Below, piece after piece: positions 11,916 to 45,000 of a stretch of DNA of 64,000 bases; the stretch's first letter is position 1; the number at the start of each line of letters is the position of its first letter. Where the stretch lies: contig CM119377.1 in NCBI GenBank assembly GCA_051294905.1, positions 9,672,001 through 9,736,000 of the forward strand, written 5' to 3'. A program made the position numbers and the translations under genes. The notes under the pieces were generated by a model, which had not been told where the DNA came from, ran no database searches, and saw only the letters and a program-made list of their open reading frames with translations. This stretch comes from Botryllus schlosseri (taxonomy: Eukaryota).

Positions 11916-14900
11916 TCACGGGTTCGACTCATTGTCCAAGCTTAATATTATCTGATTATTGGACAGAGTGACTTGATAGGAGATGCTGCGCTGGTCTCTG
12001 CCGGAGCCTACCTCTTCCGAAGCGCCGATCGGCAGCGTCAAAATGTGTTTCCCGCTCTTGTCGGTCGAAAGCGGCAAAGTCACTACGGAGTCTGCAGGCG
12101 CCAACGCACCCGAGGTGACTACGTGACAGTTCTGCGAGAAAGCAAGGTTTTTCACGCGTTCCGAAGCTTTCGGCGCGATCGGCTGGCGGCGTGTTTTTTC
12201 CGGCGAGCCCGCCGATGAGTCCCCTCTAGAGGTCACGACCCTCGGCGATATTTTTATTTGTCGCTTGAGCGACGCGATAGTGGCACCGTTTCTGGCGTGT
12301 CTCTGTTCACATTTCGAGGCGTCGACGGGCTGCGGGCGTTGCGATTGGGCCTGGAAAGAGAATCGGTTGAGCGAAGGTGCGAAGAACTTCCATTAGAGTT
12401 TTTTGGGATTATTGGCAGAAGTAATGATTGATACATGTTAACTCCGGCTCGATATTACTTAGGGGTGGTCACTGGTCAGCAACGAAAACTTTTATAACTT
12501 GCTACTTTTCCGGAGAACTCAAGTAGGTTTTGTTAACTTGCACTACCTACTCGTTGTGATTTTAGATAACTAGGCCACACATATTTACTTTTTTACTCAC
12601 TCAGATATAGCTACATCTACTTGTATTTGACTGGAAATTCACGAAAACATTGTACTTCTACTGGAGTGCAAACAATGACTGCAGCGACTGCCTTCTCTGA
12701 ATTGTCACCGCTGGGGCTGAGCAAATCCGAGTACCAGAGTGATTCCGAATTTGAGTAACACGCTTCGAGTGGAGTATCCCTCATTATTTATCGACAAGAT
12801 AGCGTAATGATGGAGCGTTCGGCTTCTTGATCGGTAGGTCGTGGGTTCGATCCCCGGCCGGGTCACACCATAGACCTGATTAGTAAAACCGGCATCCATG
12901 ACTTTCCCGCATGGCGCTCAGCATCACCGGGATAGCATGGAGGGGTGGTGCAAGACTTAGAAAGCGTTACAGGGCTATATCTGCACCTTCCTCACATATG
13001 CACATCATGCACTGATGGTATACGTATGAAAAGATTGTGTGTATGTCTATCATGAGTCAGTGTATAAGCCGCAAAAACGCCAATGACAAAGATACGTAAA
13101 GTTCCTTTCTTCCCTATGACGTTGTAACAACACAGATGATACGGAAAGTTTAAATACGGAGCTTATATACGTTCCAAGGAATCATCGTACTGAACTCAAT
13201 TCGAGCACAAATTTGCAGAGAGCCGAATGACTTGCCCCTCGACAGGTTCCATACACTGATATTTTCAAATGCCATTGGTACTTTATTTCAGGTATGGCAT
13301 CATTATTTTAAAATAGTGAAAATCGATTTGGGCATGAATATTGGAAATCGAATCAAATCATTTGAGACACCATCTTTGTCTGTACCACTGCACCCATTTA
13401 GCTGATTGAGCCAAATAATAACCATGAAAGTGTCAAAGCTAAAGGCGGGAGCCCGGTTCAGTCACTTTATCCGGCTCGCAAGAGGTTACGCATGGCCCCC
13501 GTGAAAACACTTTGAATCAAGTTCGAACACATTGTATTCCGTACAGACCTGTTGCAATCTCTGCTCTTGCTCGACACGTTTGGAAGCTTGCAACAACAAG
13601 AACGACGCGACATTCCGTTCTTTCTCGGAGTCGGATATTTCGTCAGGGTTCGCTTTCGTTCCTGGCACCTAAAACCAAGTGGTTATGTATTTATACTACT
13701 TGTAACAAATTTTTGAGCAAACTATCACACTTTTGGTCTGTTTGCGTCCCTTTTCTGAGTAAAATTGTCATAACAACTGAGCAAAACGTCCCATGCGCAG
13801 CAGTGACCAAATTTATTTTCGAATATTGCACCTACTTGTGTTGTTAATAACTTTGCGTCGGTCGCGAAGATCCGCCCAGCACTTACAAAAGAAGTCACCT
13901 CCGGCTAATTGTTAAGATAGCTGACAAGATAGCGTAATGATGAGGCGTCTGGCTTCTTAATCAGTAGGTCGTGGGTTTGATCCCCGGCCGGGTCTGACTG
14001 AAGACCTGATTAGTAACACCTGTATCTATGACTTCCCCGCTTGGCGCTCAGCATTACCAGGATAGCATGGAGGGGTGGTGCAAGACTTAAAAAGCCTTAC
14101 AAGGCTATATCTGCACCTTCCTTGCCCAGCGGCATATGCACATCATGCACTCGTGGTATGCAGATGCACAGATCGTGTGTATGTATATCATGAGTCGGTG
14201 TATATGCCAGAAAACAACATCAAGGACAAATATACATAATGACCTTTGTTAAAAGTACGCGAGCCCTCACCTAAATCTACTTTTTGAATATACTGGAGCA
14301 CGTTTCACACCTTCTTTTTCTACTTCCCTTTGAAGTAGCTTTGATGTCTGAAAAACCGTTACTTCTAATTGTACTTAAGTGGAGACTTACGACGTTACTT
14401 CCACTTATACTTGTAACGGACGTTTTGGTCGTTGCCTAGCTCAAACGATAGTTCGTTATATTTACTTGATTAGAGTTTTGGCTGTAACACTTTTAGGCTT
14501 GTCGAGTAGCTTGCCAACTCGAATTGAGACTACCACCTCACTTTCTTTGCTTCCTACAATCCGAGCCTACCCCTGAGACCCGGTCAAATGTAACTCAAAC
14601 AGTTACAGAATAGGATAGCAATTTACTACATAGAAAGATCACGTCAACGTCGAGGCAATAGTCACAATAGCGGTTAACAACAGTTAACTCTCTAGGCTCT
14701 AAACTTACAATCTAAACAAAATACAATCACCTGAATGATGGCCTAAACTTAAACAATACTTACACAATACAAATAATGCCCTAAATGACACGTTGTATCA
14801 CTAAATTTAGCCTAACTTCAATCACTGATCCAATGATATTACAAGCAACAAAGCGACTAAACTTCAACAAGTGACTATCAAGACACGAGGGGAAAATCCA

Positions 14901-17900
14901 ACCAGAGAGGGCACTACTGAGCTGTGAGGCTCACAATCACTTGACCATTTCTCGTGTTACATTCCCCCCCACAGATGTAGGAATTACGAGAATACATCGA
15001 CTTAACCCAATAGCACGAGATATTATCAAGCCAAAGAAAAGTAATTCAAATTACCAATCAACTCATGCCACAATGTCACTATCAATGTAGGTCAAATGTT
15101 CTTCAAAAGGTTTGTGAGACTTCAGTAAATCTCTCAAATATATCAACAGTCTTCAAGTAACATTTTCGAACAACCATCTGTTTACTGGCTGTACAATCAA
15201 CCAAGTACGAACGAAAAACTGGAACTTCATGAAGAAAGGTTCCACTCTTCTTCTTTGGGAGACATCGGAGTTCGATCCACATCGCACAATGGCATTCACC
15301 AGACACTCAATCTTCTTCAAGGTCTCCAAAGCTGTTTCGGTTTGTACCTCCTTATAAAAGAAGGATAATGACAATATGTCAGTGCCAATCCAAATGGCAG
15401 CCAACTCCAACATTGATTTGTCCATGCTACCAAACCGAGCAAGCCCTTGAAAACAAGCCCCATTATAACGAGATGCTTCTTCATAAAATTCAGTGCCGTC
15501 AGAATACCCTTGTGGATCCTTCAACAATTGCGATTCGAAATTAGCACTCACATCGCGAATCCGATCGTCACCAGTTATGGAACGAGAGCATGCTTCAATC
15601 TTTGAATCCAATGCGCAATCCATTGACACCTGTGTCATCAACTTTTTAATATTGGCATCAAGAGAATATCGTTTCTCAAATGTGAATTGATCTCCTGTCA
15701 CTTCTCTATGCACAAATTGCACAGGCATCTTTGCTACCTGACCATTACCAGTTGGATCAGGATGACTTGACTTGAGAAGTATTGATACTTCATCATGCGC
15801 ATTAGGTGATTCGGTTTCATCTTCAAACTTTGCATCACGTGAACAGCCCGAGTGTTCACTCAACAATGTATCTTCCGGAATATGATTATCAACTCTGTTC
15901 ACATGGAGAACGTCTTCCGGAATACATTTCAGCGCCTTTCCAATATCAGGAAATTTACAAGACCTGGCACTGTCAAATTTAACCATTGTGGTTTGAGAAC
16001 ATTCTGTGTCACAGTCCTCAACGTTGTCATAGTTTCCTTTCAAAATACCAAGGTCCTGAACACAAGTATTTGCATTGATGCAATCTTCAATTGGGTGTGG
16101 CGCATTGACAGGATCGACGATAACATCGACTTCAGTGGAATTGAATACTGCAGCTTCAGAATTACTTGGACATTCCACATCCTGACCTTTCACATCACAT
16201 TTGTCTTTGCTTGTCCCATTGACAAATACTTGTGCAGTGTTGCCAAGGCCTTTCACAGCCAATCCAACGAGGGCAGGAGAAACTGGAGTCTCTGTATTTA
16301 CACTGCTTTGCTTCAGAGCAGTATTTTGACAAACAGTGATTTCTTCAGTATTCTTCTGCGAGTATGAATGTAACTTGTGCATGTTAGCTGAGTATTTCCA
16401 AATACTTGCTTCAACGCAAGCAAGTTCAAAGTCTTGCTTCAATCGTAATCGTGACGTTTTACGTTCAATCATTACTTTCTCATCTTCCAAAACTTCGCGA
16501 TTGAACTGATGAGCCAATTTCAAATGAGCCATTTTCTTTTGAATTATTGCTTCTTTTCTCTTCACGTTTACACTATCATATATGCTGGCAGAATATGCAT
16601 TTCTAAATCGCCGAGACACATGACGACTGCTTCCAATATAATTCGAACGTGTATGTTTCGATCTTTCTTGCATGCATCTCTCCAACTTAGTTTGGAATTC
16701 ATGATAAAATCTCACTTGTTCATCATGATCTTTATGACATGCAATCTTTTCTAGATCATTTTCGACTCCGAGGAGATATAAACTCCAGAGTGTAGAATAT
16801 TCTTGAAACATACACTGTAGATCACTTTGATGTCTCAGAAGATTGATATTTACGTCTTGGGTCGAGATTTCGTGTTCAATGCTTTCATATCTTCTATGCA
16901 GTCCGGCCAACTTCTGAATCAATTCTTCTTCAGACACACACTTAATTCTTGCCATGGTCATTGTTGTTTTTCATCAGTTACGAATTGGAGAGACGTTGGA
17001 AACCTCAGTTGCACATTACCGTTTTGACTGGCGTGAACTAACTATTTGCTTACCTAGGGCTGGGCCAATCACCAACTCCTGAACTTGCTTCTACTTTCAA
17101 TTACAACGAGGACAATTTCATGTATGGAGGACACTAGCCTCATATGAGAACCTATATCTCATTCAAATGCAAAATACTTCTGCTGAGAACCCTTGGCTTA
17201 GCAGTCAAATTTTCTATTGGGAACACCAGCCTCAATAGTCTTACGAATTTGTATCAACTGCTACTAAAGCTGATTCTAACAATCAATTCAATGTCAGCTC
17301 TTCCAATACAATACTTTTACTAGCAGTTGTCAACGGTACAATACCGGTACTCCACTTGCAGCAATTGATATTCAACAATGGCCAAGTCTATACAATAGAC
17401 TTGGATATATCAAACTGTGGACGACCGTTTCTATCAAAAGTTTCTGTTTTGATAGTCTTCAAATTACTTCCAAGATTGTTGTTAACTTAAATGTAACGGA
17501 CGTTTTGGTCGTTGCCTAGCTCAAACGATAGTTCGTTATATTTACTTGATTAGAGTTTTGGCTGTAACACTTTTAGGCTTGTCGAGTAGCTTGCCAACTC
17601 GAATTGAGACTACCACCTCACTTTCTTTGCTTCCTACAATCCGAGCCTACCCCTGAGACCCGGTCAAATGTAACTCAAACAGTTACAGAATAGGATAGCA
17701 ATTTACTACATAGAAAGATCACGTCAACGTCGAGGCAATAGTCACAATAGCGGTTAACAACAGTTAACTCTCTAGGCTCTAAACTTACAATCTAAACAAA
17801 ATACAATCACCTGAATGATGGCCTAAACTTAAACAATACTTACACAATACAAATAATGCCCTAAATGACACGTTGTATCACTAAATTTAGCCTAACTTCA

Positions 17901-20900
17901 ATCACTGATCCAATGATATTACAAGCAACAAAGCGACTAAACTTCAACAAGTGACTATCAAGACACGAGGGGAAAATCCAACCAGAGAGGGCACTACTGA
18001 GCTGTGAGGCTCACAATCACTTGACCATTTCTCGTGTTACAATACTTGAGTACCAACGATGACTACTTTAATCATCTCAGGTCACGACTCCAATACAATG
18101 ATCTTTCTATAAAACTTGGTCTACAGTCCGGAAATTTGTATCATGCAAGCCTGAACAATGACCCACCCATGTCGACTTTGACTGCACTTTTCTCCTCCCC
18201 GAATCGTCGATTGCCACATTAGACATGCCAGATTGCTTCTTCAAAGGCGGTGACGACCCGGGCTGATCCACGACAGCGACCTGGATGGAGTCGACGTTAT
18301 CGGTACGGGAACCTGCCAACATTTTAAAGCTGGTATTACAAAGATTCAGTCCGTAAGGCGATCGCACGATCAAACCTGTGGTTGTGGGCCTTGTAAACAC
18401 TTTCAGATTACAGAATTCCTTCCCGATATGTGTGAAGAACGACGTGGTCTGAACGGGCTTGTGATAGGGAGCTATCTGTGAACACCAAGAAAAAAAATAC
18501 AATTGAAAAACAAAAGGTCTACTGTACGCGCCAACAGTGGGTGCAGCACCCTGTGGGTCTTATCGGTGACCAAGTGATCACCCTACTTTGCACAGTCATA
18601 AACGTACAGCGTTGCAAACATCACGGCCAGATACGGTTTTTCGAAGCACATCTGTACATTATGGTGAACGCCTTCAGCACCCTTGCCCGATTTTGCAGCA
18701 TCATGACCTTGTTGTCACTACGTTTTTAGTGAAAATCCCTAACAAATCTTAAAGTTTTGGTTCTGTTCTCTAGTGGATTTATGAAAAATGCCACAAATCG
18801 AGTTTAGAATTTATCGCTGCAATTCTGACGGTAAAATACCGACACAATGTAAAGTTTCCGCAAGACACTGCAATATTCACCAACTTTATTCTCAGACACC
18901 TCGGATCACTTACATTAACGTGCGAGATTCGATTATCGACGACATGAGAAATCATACAGCATACTCATTGACTGAAAAATAATTAACACAGAAAATCATG
19001 CGAAGAAAATTACCGAATGGAAGAAATAAAACAAAAGAGGATGCTTGATTTCAAATTGATTTTAAAAGTACTTTCGATTCATCTCGAGCTTGAGCCCATA
19101 CAATCGAGGGTAGAGGGTGCTGCAGTTACGACCCGCGTAGCACACACAACCAATGTCACCCACGAGCATTCAGTCGACTCACGTTCTGATACCGTTTCAC
19201 TTTGGCCACACTCTGAATGTACTTCAAAAGCTCGGGTGCGCCCTCGGAAAAAGGCGGCACGGAGAAGTCCTGCAGAATGTGCCGCACGTAACTCTCCTCG
19301 TCCTCGGGCCAGGGTGACACCCCTGAAATCGAACGGATGTAGCTGCATGAAAAACTAATTCGACGAATACGACAACGACGAAATCCTCACGCGACAGGTC
19401 CACCGGTTCTGGATTTTTCGCGGCGTCGGACGGGATCAGAAGAAGCTTTTTTGGGAGAAATCGAAATTGATAGACGAGACGGCTGCCGTCAACTTTGCGC
19501 AGTATGCCTTTCTGATAGTAGTACCTGAAGGTAAGGTGGGAGATATCGGCATCGGGTAGTCATGGTTTAGGCTAGCTTTGTTAGGATTAGTGTTGAGGTC
19601 TGGTTGGCATGGGTTAGGTTTAGGTTGGCTGGCTGTACGACTAGTGCATTAGTTCAAACGGGGTTTCAAACAAACCGCAGGAGCTCGGCAGAGGTCAAGA
19701 TTCATATCAGACTCATACAGCTGAAGTCACATTAATTAGGAGTAAATATTCAATATAATCTTTATGTTTGCCTGGAAATCGTGATTGAATGGGTTTGTTC
19801 TTTTAACAGTGTTGTTGATGCACAATTGATTTTGCACACCACTATTCTGAAGTAATTTATCAAGTATTTAGTGTGGTAGATTTTTGCTTTTGTGACTCTG
19901 CGTAAATTTCTCGAAGGTACTTCCAAAAGTTCAAACTAAACCACAAGCAGCCTAGAAACGAGGGATACTGAGTAGAGATTGCTCAAAAAGAAGGGCTTCA
20001 TAACCAACCCCTTATCACTCACCTTAAAGCCCTGCCGACAGTCTCATAATTCATTTCCGGTTTGTTCTTCAATTTTCCCCATAAAAACGACACCGTTTTC
20101 GTGTCGACCAATTTGAAGACGCCCATCGATACGTTGATCCATCTGCGAATAACACAGTACAATTATCCAAACCTGAACATTGCATCTTTTATAGTGAAAC
20201 ACGACACCAGTATCGACATTTTAGCGATCTTAGCAATGGACTGTGTGAATGTGCCTTACTCACTTGATGTATTTCGGACAAGTGCAGGGATCTTGCAGAA
20301 GGGCCATCATAAACTGCCACAAGAAGTATGTAGAATCTGAAATAGCGGAAGGAATATGGATTGAGCGCGCATTATTTTGGCGACAGCGAGGCACGTTTCG
20401 GCGTACTCCTGGTGCGAATCGGTCTTTTGCCGTCGACGGATTTCCTGGGACGTATGTTATCTCGTTTTACGTTCGAATCTCCCCAAGACGACCTGGTGCT
20501 GGTCATCTGCTGCTGCATAATCTCATTCAAGGTTTGAAGCGCAAGCTGATCCTGAGAGAGCTTTTGGATTTTCGGCTCCGGCTCTGCAGTAAGAATGAGA
20601 TTTGAGGCTGTGATTTTGGAATCCGGTACCATGTTCCGAGGTAAAAAACTTGAAATATTTATTAATAAATGTACATTATATGTTTTGTTTCTGTACTAGA
20701 AATTGTTGTGTCCAGCTATAATTGAAAGTAAGATATCAGATGAGTATTGACACCATAGCACACTGGTTCTCAAACTTTTTTTCGACACGCCCCCTTGACA
20801 GTGAAAAATTTCGCGCCCCCCCCCCCCCTCTCGTCATATCAAAATATATGATAAAGAGCAATCAGAATGTTTGTAATCCCAATGTATTGCTTGGTGGCAT

Positions 20901-30940: not shown

Positions 30941-32057
30941 CCGATATCAAGAGTTCGGTATAATCGAAAACAATTCCATATGAGCTCGAGTGAGTATCGG
31001 TCGTTTCAAAGCATACATTTGGCTGGTGCTATGGACTTTCACTGTAATGATGGTTCGATTACGTCGCATCATACCTCGCATGCGATGATATATATGTATT
31101 CTACTGCTTGAATCAATTTGTTTGTCGCCATCGTTGATATTCTACGTAGGCTATAGGCTACCACGCGTCGTATCAGTATCAGTTTTTATTAATACTTTCA
31201 TCATTTCAAAACATCACAAGACTGCAATACAATGAAAGGATAGGATGGTGTCGAAACAACTTGGAGTAGCCTTTAAGATCAGACACCCACCTTAGTCTAG
31301 GCGAAGTAAAGAAGACGCATGCACACTGAATGAAAAGTAATGGAAGTAATGTGGCGGAAAGCGATCGAGGTCGATGTTAGGTCGTGCTCCGGTAATCCTG
31401 AGCTCAGCGTGCTTGGTTTGCCTGGCTAGGCGGATTCAGGCTGTGATTGATTTTATATTAGATAAAGAATGTATATTATGATCATTGATCACGTAAACTG
31501 GGTTCTGCAGAGTGAATACGATATAAATTGGTGATGTGGGCAATGCTGACAGTAGGTATCGCGACATCCCCGAAGCATGCTCTGATTTCGCGATGAGATA
31601 TTGCTCCATCGATGACCATAGTAAAAGAATATATGGATGACATTCTCAAATTATAAGGTTACATTATAGAGATTACCAATAATTTTTAGATCTGATCGGT
31701 AATCTCTGGAGTTACATCGATGCCATCGCCAATATATACGGATGACATCTGTTGACATCGTTGACGTCGCCGATTTGTAGGAACCCGATTCGGCTCGTCA
31801 GCGTCAGGTTATTTGGAATGAGCGATCGAGTTGCTGTATTGTCGACCGTCGTCCTGAAGAGTGAAGCCATTCGCAGTTGATTTTTGACGTAAAACTAAAT
31901 ACTGGGATCATTACGTGATTTCCAAACTGGCACCTTGGCATAAAAAGACTGCGATTCTATCGAGATATCTGTCGTTTGCGATTGGCGATTGCCAATTCTC
32001 GCTATTCCGCGGCGCCGGTGAAAGTTATCTTGGATAACGGTCAGCTAATGCACTGTT

Positions 32058-35000
32058 ATGGATCCACAAAAAAAATCAAGTTTGGTGGATAATCCGTTTG
32101 CTGCATTGTTCCCATCTGCTCAAGCTGCAGAACAGTACAGAGATGTTCTGAGGAAAGGCGAAGATACTACCTCATCAAGTGATGCATTTGAGACGATGTC
32201 ACAAGACGATACAAGTTCAAACGTGCCAATATTGAACGAAGAAGAACGTTTCAGCAAACAGAAAGATGAACTGGCTCAGCGAATTTTTCTAATCACCAGC
32301 ACAAATGCGTCTTGGAATATGAACTCAGATCTGCCTGGGCATAGTGTTTTCGTGGAAAATGATGAAACGGCCCCCCTGCATTCTATTATGGAACAGCTTC
32401 TATTCAATCGTTTACTTCTCAAGCATCCGGGACGTTATTTTCTCTCAGTCACGGGTGCTTCTGATGATGATAATACACGGGAACAGGCCAAAGAGGGGCG
32501 TCCGTTAGTTTATCTATTACAGTGTTTCAATAGGGTGTTGCATGAATCACGGCACTCGTCTGAAAATTTGCACGCAACCATATCGGAGTTGCGAAATTTG
32601 ATTGTAGTGAATATTTCCACTGCTCTGATCAGCCCAGAGATATTTACAGATTTGGGCCAAACAAGGTCTGACGTTCACAAACAGTTTTACGGTATTCTTT
32701 TTGAAAACGATTGTCTTGATCCTGAAAGTTCGTCACGTGTTTGTTTGTATGAAGTGGCCGACTACATAACCACGACTCAATCCGAGCTTATGCCCACCGC
32801 ATTTCATCCGATTCTGGATATTCTCGGCAAGGAACTACTATCGTGTGAATTAATCGAACCGGAACTTCCCTCGAATATGTGTGTGTTAGAAGCCTTCGTC
32901 ACTCATCCAATTCTGGCGTTACACTGTGTTGAATTTTCAATGCCAAATCCGAGTCTGTTTGTCACGGCGCAACATACCTTGTTGGAACTACTGCTAAACA
33001 TTTCATGCCTAACCCCAGACCCACAGACAAGGCTGCTACCTTTTTTTGAAGAAGCGCAACGAATGCGTCAAACTGATGTCGAGTCGGAAGACTTTCGGCT
33101 GCATACAAAAACAGCTGGCTTTCAATCTCAACTCTTCAGGATTTTTCATACTTTGATCAAACATCGTTCAACGCGAGCGAAGGTACTGTCTTGGATCGGT
33201 CAATATTTAGAGAGACACGAGTATTTGGCAAAGATGTGGACGCAAGAACAGACAGACGTGTTAATGAACGTGTACGGTCCTGATGCTGCGCTCTTGAATT
33301 TGAGCTCTGTGCTTCTGCGCTTGTGTCTACCGTTTTGTGTTGATAACGTGAACAAAACAGCGGCCAACACTCCAAAATTTCTAAAAATTGACGCTACGTA
33401 TACATTTGCTACAAGCGAGCAAAATGGTAGTGAAAAAGGCGTCCATTGTGTGAACTTGCATAAAGACACATGCCTGCAATCGGTCAATGAAGGCCCTCTT
33501 CCGCTGCCATCATCGCAATCCTACAGCTTCATATCGGAATGCTTCTTCATGGCCCATCGTTGCATTTACCTTGGAGCACGCGGATTGATAAAGAAGTTCT
33601 ATCGCTTGAACAGGAGTTTGAACCGTGAAGGGGAACTGTATCGACAAGTCCGTGAGAGCGGCAACACCGATGACATGGCGGACATCATAACTAAGCGCTT
33701 TGAAGCGGGAATGCGCACTTATTTGAGTATCAAAGCCTTCATGACGGAGCCCACATTCCTCGATGCTTGCATCCGACTATACGGCACCACCGCACAGTAT
33801 CTCAACCAAGTCGCAATGACTGACAGCATGGATCAACTTGCACCTGTTACTCTTCCATTGCCAAAGAACGAACCGTCGAAGTTTCTATACTACATACCGG
33901 AGTATGTAATTGAAAATATGACAGACATAATTTTGCTAATGTGGAGGTTCTCGCGTTCAAATATGATGCTTATCGAACCTTACATCCACGACTTCCTTCT
34001 AAATATCTCGGTATACATGGGGAACAAAACTTGTGTGTCAAACCCGCACTTGCGAGCATCGTTAGCCGAAGTCCTAGAAGTTCTAGTACCTCTACCCGGT
34101 AGGACAGGAACAATGCTTACTGATCACGAGGAGCTTTTCAGCACGTTTCCCTACACGGGCTTCATCGCTGTTTCCACGTTACAGCTTTTTGTTGATATTG
34201 AATTCACCGGTGACCCGCATCAGTTTGAACAGAAATTCCATTACCGACAACCGTTGTACAAAATCCTGAAGTATTTGTGGGAGAAAAAGCCCGCCCACGA
34301 CGCGATCATCAAGGAAGTCCGGTATGCGATCGAACGGATCGATGATCCGACCCATCCGCTGTTCCTGCAATTCACAAACCTGCTGCTTAACGATCTCATT
34401 TTCTTGCTCGACGAAGCAATGGGCTTTCTGGCTCAAATTAAAGGCATGGAGAAAGAAAGAGACAACGGAGACTGGGAGGAATTGGGTCAGAGAGAAAAAA
34501 TGGCGAAAGAAGCGGAATTGAAGCAGATCGGAACGATGGCTCGATACCACAACATATTATCTAATGATACCGTTGACACCCTCGTGTACACGACCACAGC
34601 GCCCGCGGTCAAAGATTTGTTCAGCAATCAATCTCTTGGAGACCGTGTTGCTGTAATGCTCGACGACTTTTTGCTAAAACTAGTTGGACCGCGGATGAGC
34701 GCGCTACGCGTAAAGGACCTGTCCGAGTATCAGTTCAAGCCGAAAAAGCTTGTTTTGGACCTGTGCCAGGTTTACATCAATCTCTGTGTCCGGGAAGAAT
34801 TCTGCCGTGCCATTTCCAGAGACGGTCGGTCGTACAGCGCGAAACTCTTTCCGATGGCGTGTCAGGTGTTGAGGCGTATCGGAGACGAGGGGGTGAGAGA
34901 ACAAATGTGGGAGGTGTCGGAAAAAATCAAACTCATCAGCGACCAGGATGCCGAGGACGAAGAGATGTTTAAAGACGTGCCAGACGAATTTTGCGACCCC

Positions 35001-35219
35001 CTTATGAACACCCTCATGCGGGACCCGGTGATATTGCCTACATCCAAGCAAGTGGTCGATCGTTCCACGATATCAAGGCATTTGATGAGCGATCCGACAG
35101 ATCCCTTCAACCGTAACCCCCTGACTATGATGGACGTGATTCCCAATACGGAATTGAAAGATAAAATACAGAAATGGATTGAAGGGAAACGCGAGAATCG
35201 AGATGGTACGAAAGGGTGA
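32058..35219 (+). CDS. UBE4A: Ubiquitin conjugation factor E4 A (Ufd2 core + U-box), 1053 aa, single coding exon
   Basis: N-terminal NPFAALF; core [13 protein letters not shown] and [17 protein letters not shown]; U-box [48 protein letters not shown]. Confidence 0.93.
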
Positions 35220-39000: not shown

Positions 39001-42000
39001 CAATGTGGTGACTGTACTATTCTTTGAAATTACGATGAAATGTCTTGTCTTGGCTGTCCTAGTCTCGAGTCATGCACAATGACTCGAGTACAAGTTGAGT
39101 CAACACAGAAACTGACTCTCGAGTCGAGTCATTTTATGCATTTGAAAAAATGACTTGAGTCATCAAAAAATCGTGACTAGAGTGATGACCACCTCTGATA
39201 ATAATCACATACCACTTGTTTTGGCTTTTGTCCATCCTTAGCGATGCTTTGTGCGTACAGAGCAGCGGCAATGGCAAAACCCACTCCAACGCCCATCGTG
39301 CCAAAGGTACCTGCATCCAATCTGAAAATTTTGCAAATGTCCATCGGCATACTACTCAGTACTCATGTATGATATCGAAAATCTACCACCTATGTCTTGG
39401 ATGGGAATTTTTCATTAAAGTGCGGCCGATGTCCATGGTGTTAGCCCCTTCGCCGATTATGATACAGTCGTTTGACAGGTACTTGTTTAGTATTCCGTAG
39501 ACTGTGTAATAGCTCATTGGCACTGTCTGATCTGCGCACATCGCCTGAAGAGTAATGAAAATGACAGTAAAACAACTGCTTGCAACGTATTTATAGCATT
39601 AGTTGCAACATAACTCGATCCTGCTATTTACAGGAGCCTTATGGCGGTCAACATTTGAAATATTTCAGTTATGCTAGTGTCGCATTACTGATATTTTGGT
39701 GCAATATGAGCTCAAGCACTGAACATCTGCCGCCGCCTAGCGACTATAACAAGATTTATTGTCATCCATTTCATAGCATTTTATGAAGAGAATGGGTAAC
39801 TCCGCAAAAGGACACATATTAATCGACAAAGATTTAACAACATAAAATATGAGGTATCATGAACCCTGACTTAATATTTCGACAAACATGTCAGTCTTAT
39901 TTACCGGTTTTCTTTATTTACCTTCACTGCTCTGTCGTTCTGTGATATTTTTTCCTTCAATAACCCCCACCAGTCCGAGTCGGAAGGGTGTTTCCACATC
40001 ACACTTCTGTGTGTTGAGAAATAGTGTCTTTGCATCTGTAGAAGAAGAAAAATGTTTCTTTTTGTCTGTATCATTGAGGTGCTTGGATGAAAGGGGAAGC
40101 TGTGGCTACCAATTTTATAAGCAGTCTTTGGTCTGACCTGGCCGGGGAATGAACCCACGGCCTACTGATCGGCAAGTCGGACACCAGGGTTGTAACCAAG
40201 TCACAAGGTTCCGAGTCACAAGTCAATCTCACTTTTATAGTTTTGACTTGAGTCATTTTCAATTCACCACCGAGTCCAAGTCATTTTGTTCACTGTTCAG
40301 CTGTTAGTTCAATCCGGTTCAATCCACTTTTTCAACTCTGCTCGAGTGATAGAGAATGGCCCGCATTCATAATATAGTAATTTTCCTCAGCCTTAACAGT
40401 TTCTGGCCCTATTTTCCAAGTATGATAGACGAAATACCAATAATCTAGTACTTACTATTCTTCGAGGTTACAATGAAATGTCTATCTTGGCCTTCCTATT
40501 ATCGAGTCATGACTTGGTTCGAGTCGTTTTACGCATTTGAAAAAATGACTCGAGTCACTACAACCCTGTCGGGCACTCTTCCGCTACACTTTATCGTTGA
40601 TAACGGACACAGTGCGAAATAATGACAATTCCAGTAAAAAAAACTCCGAAATATGCCGAACCTGTCTCACAACATCCGATATGTTCCCGTGCAAAGCAGC
40701 AGCGGCAGGGACATTATTTCCAAACTCTTCCGGTTGTATTTCGACTTGAATAACTTTAACATTTGCATTGAAGCGTGGAGGTCTGGATATAAGATGTACC
40801 AGTACAGAAGTAGTGGAGAGCAAGGTATGTATTTATAATTCAGATGAAGACCGGCTTGAATAATGCCAGTTAATTAGCATTCTAATATTTATAATAAACA
40901 CCAATTGAATTTCACAATGCGGCCAATCTTTCACGCCAACTGCCTAATGTCGGTGTGTCACCATGTCCAAAGCATTGGCAGGTACTTGCAATGCTACAGA
41001 GACCAGTTTCATTATTAATCCATTAGAAAGAAGCAATCTCAGATTGTAACAGTTTCACATAATTTGGGAAATAATATATATATATACTTTAGCCATATTC
41101 AAACATTTCGTTGGGTAGCCTACCACGGATTGATATTCCTAATACTTGAACAATGATACTTGTCACCAGAATAAATACAGAGTACCGCAGTTCAATAGAA
41201 CAAACACATCATGTTTATTTGAGGTGATCAGTATTGAAGTATTACTACAGTACTATGTCTTTCTATTCAAGTAGATTTTGCCAACTTGCACTACTTACTG
41301 GAAAGACAACAACATGAACCAAATTCTATATAGAAAAAGTTCAAACCTTCCGAAATGCAATTGCCAATTCAGTCTTGCTCCTAGCAGTAACACACAATCA
41401 GTGTTTTGTAAAGCCCTAATGAAAGAAGCAATGTATTGCAATCCACAAACAAATACAATATATACATTTTACTTTGATCTCGCAGCCGATACACAGAGCG
41501 GATGGTCATCCCTGATGACACCTTTGCCCATGGGTGTTGGAAGAAATGGCAATGCATGCGTCTCTACGAATTCAGTGATAACCCGCTCTGCTCTGGAATA
41601 AGCGGCACCCTTTCCTATCACAACGAGCGGCCGTTTTGCTTTCAGGAGCAGCTGGCAAGCCTTGGCAACTGTTGCAGGGTCAGCCAGTGTAGCAGGCGGC
41701 GGTGGGCAACGAATGGATTCCCTGAAAAAGACGCGGGCGGAATTTATGAGTTTATTATTCAAGTGAAAAACTGTGACAGAGTCGCTTGTCCATGTCCATT
41801 AGGGCTGTTCAAAAATAACTTTTTTTCATGAATCTTGCGGGTTACGTGATTAAATCGTTAGGTTGCCTTAAAAAACGACGTACACCAAATTTGAATTCAT
41901 TCCAACCAATATTCGCGGATTTCGTAGAGTTTGAAAATTTCGAATTTGCCTATGAATGCAGAAAAATTTTTTTTTCAAATTTTTCTTCCAACCCCATAAA

Positions 42001-45000
42001 ATTGTTGCGCTGTCTTCAAAGATGATGCAAAACAAATTTGACTCAATTCCAAGCCGTAGAAGCGGAGTTATTTGACTTTTTCGATGATAATTATTGGATT
42101 ATCCTTGATTGGGGGATAATCCCAGTATTGTCATCGAAAAACTCAAATAACTCCGCTTCTACGGCTTGGAATTGAGTCAAATTTGTTTTGCATCATCTTT
42201 GAAGACAGCGCAACAATTTCATGGGGTTGGAAGAAAAATTTGAAAAATTTTTTTTTTGCATTCATAGGCAAATTCGAAATTTCCAAACTCTACGAAATCC
42301 GCGAATATTGGTTGGAATGAATTCAAATTTGGTGTGCGTCGTTTTTTAAGGCAACCTAACGATTTAATCACGTAACACGCAAGATTCAGGAAAAAAAGTT
42401 AATTTTGAACAGCCCTAATGTCCATATTAGTACGAGAGGTGGGGGCAGAAAGGTGCAGAACTAATGCTTCATTTCCACTAGAACTCTTCAGTGGATACAA
42501 ACATTATTACGATATGCTATAAAGCTTGGGTGTGCAACATTTTTGACAGGCGGGTTACGAGATATACATCACGCAGTGAAACTAGTAGTTGCAAAATATT
42601 TTTTTCACTGCATTAGCTTGAGGAATAATAGACTGGTCAAAAGTGTATGACAGCATCATTGGATAGATCAGTTCTATATAAAAAATCTATCATATCAAAA
42701 TTTTTGGAAAGTGCACGTCCCCAATCAGGTAGAGTAGAATTAATACTGTTATTCGCAACTGTGCATGGAACAAAAACCATTTGAGATGCAGTAGCCTACC
42801 CAGAATTCTTGAAAATGAAGAAGGCTATTATAACAGTGAAAAATCAGGTAAATACCTGTAGGAATTCCGTTTCACAGGAGCGTTCACAAAATTTCCTGGA
42901 ATATCAATGTATGCCGTACCAGGTCTCCCGTATATCGTGCTTCGAACTGCCTTCTCCACAATTTGCGGAATCACTGCGATACTTTGCGGTCTTGCCGAAA
43001 ACTTTGTGTACATCCTGCATGCTTCCACCTTGAGTAATGAAATGTTCTATCATACCAATACGACGTGATACGACATAATACCCTGATGTCATTGTCGCTC
43101 CAACGTAACAATGGGTGTCATACTTAACTGATTTTCTGCACTCAATACTATGGTGTTTATTTCCTTCGGCCTCGTGTTTTTAACAAGATATGTGTAGTGT
43201 AGTAATTTGTCAGGCTTAAATTAGTTGCATTGAGACCGTTATATAGTTATTAAATGATTGATTATTTGTTGTTTCTGCATTATGTTATAGTGTAGCGATA
43301 TTTGGTGTACCACTTACACTTGGTGCTTTTATATGTAAGGCTTTGGCCATCAACAATAAACGGTTACCCTGGAGGGATGCATAGTGCCGAGTGATTGATG
43401 CGTATACTACTATACCACCTCACCATTGCCAATACTCCACAGTCATAACGAAATCAAATGGTAATTCCATGTATTACAAAATTATACTTACGTTAGCCAA
43501 TCTTGTAAATGAACAGCAAAATAAGTTTATGCAGGTGATATCTAGTAATTTTCATTGCTTGCCTCTTCTATGTTATCTTCTGGTACTTATCATTCAGTTC
43601 TGGTACTTATCATTCAGTGTGCTTGCTTCATCTTTAAATGGACTTTTATCTGCATCATTTTATTGCGATTTTGTGGGGTCTTGCATCGAGAAAAATGGTA
43701 ATAAAATGATGGTTGTGTTACCGTTAGTAGATAGCTTGGATAATTTTAAATACTTTGCTATCATGACACTTGCTGTATTGACACTCACTATTTTCAATGC
43801 CACAACATTGTGATTTATATTGATGCTTGCTATTTTCAACATGAGCTATTGGTATGATAAACGTTGCCTTCTTAGTTCGATACAATCTGCCGCAGCATGC
43901 AAATCCACGTCCGACTTATTCCATATTTTCAAACGATGAATTTTCGACATCAAGGCCTACATATAAACACGGTACAATTGCATCCTTGCAGATGGCGTCA
44001 CCCGAAAACACACCTGTGGAAATTCTTGAAACGCCCCCATTTGTTCTTGATCTTGATCACTGGACCCACCGATGACAATCATAGGCCAACAGTTCTCTTG
44101 CGCATTGGCGAGACCGGCGAGTGCGTGAATTAGTCCGGGACCAGACACAACCAAACACACTCCTGTAAAAGTGGTTTACAGTAACTGATCACAATATACA
44201 TTTATTTACGTGAAATTGAATAATCTTAGCAAGAACTTGGAAAAATCTATGAATCGTGATTGCTAATCATATATATTCCAGAAAAAAATTCAAGGGCGGT
44301 ATGTAACAAAGTATGTTTTCAGAGTACGGCATATAATGAAGCAGGGTTGATATTAATTCAACAGTTTTAGAAGTGCTCTCTTTTTATTTAATAGTATTGA
44401 CATGTGGAAAATTGTGTCAAAATTGAACCTGTTGGTTGTATATCTGTTCTACAACGCGTCATCCCAATCTACTTTTTAGAACTATCGGCGCATGATATGA
44501 GCATTGTGCAAGACTTACAAAGCCATACAAGGCTACATCTGCACCTTCCTTGTTCAGCGGCATATGCATATTGTATATTGCATACAATGAGTGCAAGATC
44601 AAATCATATGTATAGATATCATGAGTCGGTGTATATGCCGCAAAAATATCAAGGACAAAAATTAATGACTACTTGATTGCCTCTGAATATAAGACCCACA
44701 ATCCCCGCATTATGTCGCGCTCCGCGAGGTACCACAATGTTTTGCAGGCTTACCTGGTCGTCCTGTCAGATAGCCTATAGCCCCTGCTGCATAAGACGCG
44801 GCTTGTTCATTTCTCATGCCAATGTATTTTATTCCAACACTTTGAGCTGCCACTGCAATCTCAATCACTGGAATGCCAACGATTCCAAACATGAATTCAA
44901 CGCCCTGGAAGGCAATGACAATTATCAATCTTAAACCAAATTAATTTAGTTATCATAGTAAATCGATCATAAAAAAGAGAAACAATGAAAAATAACATGG

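Follow-up and report, generated by a model that had tools for sequence, protein, structure and literature searches.

A pol-less BEL/Pao retroelement family of Botryllus schlosseri whose long reading frame is kept free of stop codons while the amino acids of its tail evolve neutrally

Results and Discussion

A 64,000-nucleotide window of the genome of Botryllus schlosseri (GCA_051294905.1, contig CM119377.1, positions 9,672,001 to 9,736,000 of the forward strand; coordinates below are positions in this window) contains a long terminal repeat (LTR) retroelement of 3630 bases on the minus strand (14412-18041). It belongs to a non-autonomous BEL/Pao family without pol, capsid or nucleocapsid. The single open reading frame (ORF) of this family is almost certainly kept open by selection acting in cis: in 16 full-length copies its 410-codon tail has gained no stop codon where 9.7 were expected, while the amino acids that it encodes change at a neutral rate. 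An earlier note, made from the sequence of the window, had described the element as a young satellite with a capsid-like or accessory protein of its own.

The element and its sibling copies

The identity of the two LTRs (5' LTR 17492-18041, 3' LTR 14412-14961, both on the minus strand with TGT...ACA ends) spans exactly 550 bases, and the match ends on both sides. A 5-bp target-site duplication (TSD), ATACT, flanks the element at 18042-18046 and 14407-14411, and the purine tract GGGGGGGAA stands before the 3' LTR. This polypurine tract (PPT), together with a preceding block common to the candidate helper family described below, occupies 14962-14984 on the minus strand. The identical LTRs, TSD and PPT of the earlier note are thereby all confirmed, and an LTR of this length as well as the position of the PPT agree with Belpaoviridae, whose LTRs measure 0.2-1.2 kb and whose PPT precedes the 3' LTR (PMC8742986). 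The interior of 2530 bases harbors the ORF at 15153-16961 (minus strand), which comprises 602 codons from the first ATG and 600 from the second and stops 188 bases ahead of the 3' LTR. It consists of a Gag head (16386-16955, minus strand; codons 1-190 from the second ATG) and an orphan tail (15156-16385, minus strand; codons 191-600). No Pfam family was found in the 602-codon ORF. Six-frame searches of the element with tblastn, blastn and a profile of gag-pol proteins from the same genome detected no reverse transcriptase (RT), RNase H, integrase, protease or knuckle, in agreement with the earlier note.

A search of the 495-Mb genome with the LTR gave 40 scored matches among 168 candidates. 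A second search with the DNA of the ORF scored all 24 of its candidates, so that copies were found by DNA and not by an open frame. The element is one of 16 full-length young copies, which are accompanied by fragments and by an older copy of 86% identity (L053, G000:C4:16950000-16958000), which has stops, frameshifts and some 1 kb of inserted sequence and served as decayed control. The TSD measures 5 bp in 15 of the 16 copies and 4 bp in the remaining one. Their LTR pairs differ by 0-4 mismatches, with none in 8 of the 16, and of nine single LTRs inspected eight are TSD-flanked solo LTRs. Identity to the window copy is 95-97%, and the end branches of the tree of the copies hold 0.195 of a total length of 0.243. 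As the insertions are young yet several per cent apart, their differences probably arose in many copying lineages and not by decay in place. The sibling search called for by the earlier note thus established a multi-copy, truly retrotransposed family in place of a single-copy deletion derivative.

Selection on the reading frame

For the codon tests the mutation spectrum was drawn from non-coding parts, and changes were counted once per column and state, in a count that leaves recombination between copies unmodelled. The frame is open in 13 of the 16 copies, and each of the three breaks is private to one copy (early-stop or frameshift types L032, L036 and L045). Over the whole ORF, 281 distinct substitutions include one nonsense change compared with 15 expected (P 5e-6); frameshifts in the region number three, all private, and leader and LTR carry many shared indels. 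Within codons 191-600, 59 synonymous, 158 replacement and no stop-making changes were counted, which corresponds to a ratio of nonsynonymous to synonymous rates (dN/dS) of 0.99 and a probability of 6e-5 for the lack of stops. Zero stops occur in codons 191-430 against 4.4 expected. The two other sense frames of the same tail DNA collected 16 stop-making changes each (11.5 and 13.0 expected), and 5 stops lie among the 399 tail codons of the dead copy L053. The autonomous family described below yields a dN/dS of 0.41 in the same count (p 0.002), which shows that the count has the power to see constraint.

Protein databases supplied one full-length homologue, P0002, with 596 residues, 71% identity and a frame open to the same last residues; at this distance about 8 stops would be expected in its tail. 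Compared with P0002, replacements in the head are conservative (z 3.0), whereas those in the tail are no more conservative than neutral (z 0.5). Stops are thus purged from the lineages that continued to copy while tail amino acids are neutral, which indicates selection on the open frame and hardly on amino acids. Stops could not be removed from individual copies if the product acted in trans, and the requirement would accordingly lie in cis. The comparison of dN/dS across copies proposed in the earlier note therefore upheld its view that the frame is maintained, but not that the encoded tail is. A narrow literature search found no LTR satellite reported to purge stops while its amino acids evolve neutrally.

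Two further observations concern frames of this DNA. In L032, L034, L036 and L037, deletions at the stop codon leave the stop at the same codon number, a hint of a held end point. A 174-codon antisense frame was considered as a second kept frame and rejected, as it has a stop in most copies and gained 2 further stop-making changes against 3.0 expected.

A candidate autonomous helper

A protein search identified three loci with a frame of 1912 amino acids (L047-L049) and one frameshifted sister (L050), in elements of about 7.1 kb. The Pfam families DUF1759, RT, Peptidase_A17, integrase and DUF5641 characterize the product as a BEL/Pao gag-pol, and protease, YVDD, RNase H and zinc-finger motifs are all in place. 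L047 thus has the protease, RT, RNase H and integrase that define Pol in Belpaoviridae and that are absent from the element of the window. The LTR pairs of the helper are 99.6-100% identical. Helper and element have in common TGTAACACGAGAAATG at the LTR start, GTTACA at the LTR end, the primer site and the block before the PPT, and their LTRs are 73-79% identical over the 3' part. Tiles of the interior of the element align to the helper only over the end of the leader and the Gag head and over the last 120 bases or so.

Coding homology, together with LTR ends, primer site and PPT common to an intact autonomous family of the same genome, and several independent recent insertions with TSDs, mark the element as a non-autonomous BEL/Pao derivative. 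Judging from these shared cis sequences, it is very probably copied by the L047-L049 family, and the satellite with a helper that the earlier note had imagined has thus gained a candidate partner. Among the 101 scored of 224 RT candidates no other is more than 50% identical to the helper RTs, and the best named relatives of the latter come from the ascidian Styela clava (52-54%). L031, which by its LTR spacing resembled a helper of 7.9 kb, proved to be a normal copy beside an inverted solo LTR. One autonomous copy, L049, lies in a tandem array of units of about 192 bases, some 70 kb from the end of its contig.

What the ORF encodes

Residues 2-188 align with positions 1-184 of the helper Gag at 36% identity (E 2e-29; profile probability 98.5), and the homology ends at residue 188-194. 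In the helper, the capsid-region family DUF1759 follows at 292-437 and the knuckles near 515; both are absent from the ORF, which therefore lacks the capsid and nucleocapsid domains of a Belpaoviridae Gag. The head is predicted to fold into three helices and one long helix with a predicted local distance difference test score (pLDDT) of 76. Fold searches of the head against PDB and BFVD returned generic helical bundles only and no match at E<=0.001. The tail is predicted as coil over 215-430 and as a low-confidence helix thereafter; its mean pLDDT is 34, and structure prediction beyond residue 190, as suggested in the earlier note, hence gave no confident fold. P0002 retains a hydrophobic stretch of 19 residues that lies at about 516-534 (mean hydropathy 1.5 and 1.8).

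A search of 1.8 billion representatives returned P0002 and one fragment of 63 amino acids only, and the ESM Atlas held no usable match for the ORF. A profile of the head retrieved P0002 alone among longer proteins, which is weak evidence. The tail was also considered as degenerate pol, but the six-frame searches and the tiling against the helper were empty there; two short C-terminal look-alikes of an integrase tail had E values of 6 and 18 and the wrong spacing. The earlier note had likewise set the C-terminus apart from pol. Comparison of the tail with the head gave no support for an internal duplication.

Probable self-priming

The 5' LTR is followed by TTTAA and then by GTTAACAACA, and the canonical TGG is indeed missing there, as the earlier note had observed. 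The site GTTAACAACA (17477-17486, minus strand; 5 bases past the 5' LTR) occurs in the autonomous family as well and is the exact complement of LTR positions 280-289, a match that none of 100 shuffles reaches. These positions hold the predicted self-primer TGTTGTTAAC, which would also form the 5' end of the RNA (17753-17762, minus strand). The absence of a TGG site is probably explained by the pairing of the 10 bases behind the LTR with the middle of its own LTR. According to PMC6317226, self-primers of the Tf1 type comprise at least 10 bases that start 0-5 bases behind the 5' LTR and are complementary to the LTR; here 10 complementary bases follow a 5-base spacer. Very probably, the front end of the element's RNA serves as its own primer for reverse transcription, in a Tf1-like manner.

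Twenty of the 101 RT matches, chosen across the range of scores, were surveyed together with 9 motif hits and 7 loci identified earlier, and an LTR pair was obtained for 29 of the 36. In 22 of these 29 BEL/Pao elements the bases next to the LTR form a pairing of 10-15 bases with its middle. The paired sequences are wholly different between families and show single compensating changes between sisters (GTAGATACAG/CTGTATCTAC compared with GTAAATACAG/CTGTATTTAC), and in a cross table each primer site matches its own LTR and close kin only. The other seven elements (L060-L065 and L079) pair over 6-8 bases when unspliced and over 10-13 bases across a predicted GTAAG...YAG junction in the LTR, where a predicted GT-AG intron of about 60-69 bases would split the self-primer. 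As controls, none of 22 foreign primer sites does as well on any of the seven LTRs, and the 22 unsplit elements score 0. In an RT tree the seven form two groups. Folding from the predicted start gave a mean pair probability of 0.98 for the element of the window and at least 0.88 in 9 of 11 elements folded, the start chosen by the analyst favouring the helix. The primer site shows that BEL/Pao elements, which are listed as tRNA-primed, can carry a self-priming signature.

It is improbable that a host tRNA or a tRNA fragment, such as one from the anticodon loop, acts as primer and that the match to the LTR is a structural element or chance. The sequence TGTTAACCG may resemble tRNA-Asn. One control window further downstream in the element also reaches 9 bases, and the profile of Belpaoviridae by the International Committee on Taxonomy of Viruses gives tRNA priming for the family, through an 18-nt site that pairs with the 3' end of tRNA-Arg or tRNA-Gly (PMC8742986). 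However, none of the 29 elements has a TGG in the first 8 bases behind the LTR, host tRNAs themselves not being scanned, and the site differs wholly between families while its LTR partner changes along with it. In the literature covered, including PMC554778, PMC3118150, PMC6238403, PMC8556966, PMC8220671 and PMC3601003, with subscription journals, Repbase entries and supplements outside the scope, no report of self-priming in BEL/Pao was found. Elements primed in this way would escape control by tRNA fragments.

Transcription of the family

In 3'-tag libraries the second mate is sense, and taken in this way two single-cell runs of the species contain reads on the sense strand of the element. 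Coverage is concentrated on LTR positions 1-350 (depth 141 and 63 in X23) and falls to about 1 beyond. According to these 3'-tag reads the poly(A) site lies past LTR position 350 or so, which is compatible with an R region from 280. The family is thus transcribed in sense, and its RNA ends within the LTR near AGTAAA at position 335 (14622-14627, minus strand), the best candidate poly(A) signal of the 3' LTR. The poly(A) signal proposed in the earlier note is hence not a standard one, as the LTR contains neither AATAAA nor ATTAAA in sense. At position 17832, 245 of 246 reads differ from the window copy, which shows that the reads come from other copies. A CT..AC joint at 14698-14946 in run X14 was considered as an LTR intron; it was taken for a helper-type contig because its ends fall where the helper LTR stops and starts resembling that of the element.

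Why the frame is kept

On balance we favour, with modest confidence, a reason at the level of the RNA for the maintenance of the frame. RNAs with early stops and long 3' untranslated regions (UTRs) undergo decay. The RNA of the element would begin near LTR position 280, and its first 10 bases or so would pair with the site behind the LTR and be cut off as primer, as in Tf1. Gag, protease, RT and integrase would be supplied by the 7.1-kb family, whose LTR ends, primer site and PPT match those of the element. The Gag head, where alone some constraint on amino acids is seen, may become part of helper particles. The tail would be filler that shifts the stop close to the 3' LTR; if translation stopped early instead, as much as 1.8 kb of 3' UTR would follow, and only RNA translated nearly to the 3' LTR would be likely to escape decay and to be packaged. 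Taken as a whole, this account of a helper-copied, self-priming, capsid-less satellite whose 600-codon frame serves translation-dependent survival and packaging of its RNA appears somewhat better founded than not.

In two further RT-less families from the same clade, the frame stops 265-416 bases short of the 3' LTR in six of seven copies measured; in the seventh (L083), which has extra length of the size of an insertion, the frame ends 1964 bases before it. In one of these families the frame crosses integrase-derived DNA without protein similarity.

Several points weigh against this account. Seven ATGs lie ahead of the second ATG of the ORF in the predicted leader. The U3 half of the helper LTR is not alignable to that of the element, and with 101 of 224 RT candidates scored, a closer helper may have been missed. 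Constraint on codons 1-190 is weak among the 16 copies (dN/dS 0.74, p 0.26; 0.49-0.68 by another count). The last 170 codons, in which length-dependent decay is expected to be weaker, contain no stop against 5.5 expected (P 0.004), and the position at which the frame ends is fixed nearly to the codon. The latter two findings both fit a need for the C-terminus of a protein.

Such a need is the core of a second explanation, which we regard as possible but distinctly less likely: the full-length protein would act in cis, its head docking to helper Gag, its tail forming a disordered tether tolerant of length changes and its hydrophobic C-terminal part serving as anchor, so that the need for the C-terminus purges stops. 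Apart from the stop-free last 170 codons, the terminal residues shared with P0002, the near-fixed length, the hydrophobic stretch kept in P0002 and the coil predicted between residues 215 and 430 agree with this; a precedent exists in the Gag-Pol fusion of the mouse intracisternal A particle (IAP) element 1-delta-1, as cited in PMC7411935. Against it stand a dN/dS of 1.01 in codons 431-600, replacements in 501-600 that are not conservative relative to P0002 (z -1.0) and the lack of fold confidence in the tail.

That the ORF encodes a capsid-like or folded accessory protein of the element's own, as the earlier note suggested, is very unlikely. The frame is intact and kept, and the head is derived from Gag and predicted to be helical, so that the note's Gag-like reading of the first 190 or so residues stands. 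However, this part precedes the capsid region, no PDB or BFVD fold matches it at E<=0.001, and the neutral tail largely refutes such a reading. The idea of a decaying deletion derivative that is open merely from youth fits the identical LTRs and the neutral tail, but is refuted by the deficit of stops among copies found by DNA search, by the stops gathered in control frames and in L053 and by the open frame of P0002.

If decay of early-stop RNAs is indeed the cause, it would explain long frames in successful enzyme-less LTR elements and would caution against naming such ORFs accessory genes. Intact ORFs are commonly taken as a sign of a useful protein; in this family, selection on the frame and selection on the protein are told apart by 16 natural copies, with the other frames as controls. 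A wider reading, which we hold tentatively and which falls a little short of being favoured, is that a 410-codon orphan frame grew from non-pol DNA purely to be translated through, built and kept by RNA surveillance, within a radiation of BEL/Pao elements that dispense with tRNA priming and in part use primers made by splicing. New long ORFs could in that case arise by way of surveillance, here on an element that itself parasitizes a parasite.

The host ETS gene and neighbouring features

The element lies in an intron of an ETS gene (13669-18166, minus strand) in the coding part, downstream of the exons for the ETS domain (20336-19391), and begins 125 bases past the splice donor. A spliced contig of a public run contains ETS exons from 20336 to 18167 and joins exon 18312-18167 to 13668-13548 with the reading frame open across the 18167/13668 junction; none of the runs holding this stretch is on record as RNA. 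As the ETS gene is on the minus strand, the element is inserted in sense, as the earlier note had stated. Among the contigs listed, none bridges the insertion site. If the ETS transcript ended early in the element, the DNA-binding domain would be kept and the C-terminal exons lost.

Copies of a very abundant short repeat, with contig depth above 100,000, occur at 12793-13099, 13923-14239 and 44506-44669; one of them shares the ETS intron with the element, and some single-cell reads at this repeat have template-switch adapter ends. At 32049-35219 (plus strand) an uninterrupted frame of 1056 codons with Ufd2P_core and U-box represents an intronless ubiquitin ligase gene of the UBE4 type, perhaps a retrocopy. 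A 625-base stretch at 41797-42420 is 94% identical to its own reverse complement and forms a long fold-back element.

Elsewhere in the genome, a second pol-less family of 3.0 kb (L055, L080, L082 and L088; partner L054) has a complete Gag of 704-753 residues and identical LTR pairs, and its frame contains 0 stops compared with 5.3 expected. A third RT-less family of 4.7 kb (L051 and L052) combines Gag-protease with stitched remnants of pol in a single frame. In its LTR, a U3 resembling that of the window element is joined to an R-U5 resembling that of the helper.

Comparison with known systems

Autonomous Belpaoviridae (Semotivirus), such as L047-L049, share with the element LTR ends, 5-bp TSD, PPT block and Gag head, but at 7.1 kb compared with 3.6 kb they also encode the capsid, nucleocapsid, protease, RT, RNase H and integrase that it lacks. 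From terminal-repeat retrotransposons in miniature, described in PMC6934838 as shorter than 1000 bp with a short non-coding interior, it differs in being 3630 bases long and coding. As described in PMC11302176, the pair RLG_Quinta and RLG_Cereba of wheat resembles the present case in that the partner is recognised by common LTR motifs, primer site and PPT and that a gag-derived ORF is kept. Quinta, however, is a Ty3/gypsy element of a plant that is said there to contribute Gag, with a complete Gag ORF and no pol, whereas the element keeps only the head that precedes the capsid; the L055 family is the closer analogue of Quinta in this genome.

With Tf1/Tj1, the Tf1/sushi group, Tcn1 and the TAR copia elements, as described in PMC6317226 and PMC4600332, the element shares the lack of a tRNA site, at least 10 LTR-complementary bases 0-5 bases from the 5' LTR and a helix in the predicted RNA fold. 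Unlike Tf1, Tcn1 and TAR, it belongs to BEL/Pao, and in seven of its relatives the primer would form only after splicing. The mouse IAP 1-delta-1 subfamily is likewise non-autonomous (Saito et al. 2008, as cited in PMC7411935): it is internally deleted and very mobile, needs Gag and Pol in trans and has a single frame of its own that aids movement in cis. The frame of IAP 1-delta-1, however, is a Gag-Pol fusion of recognisable parts, whereas two-thirds of the frame in the Botryllus element are without homologue or amino-acid constraint, and its capsid is absent.

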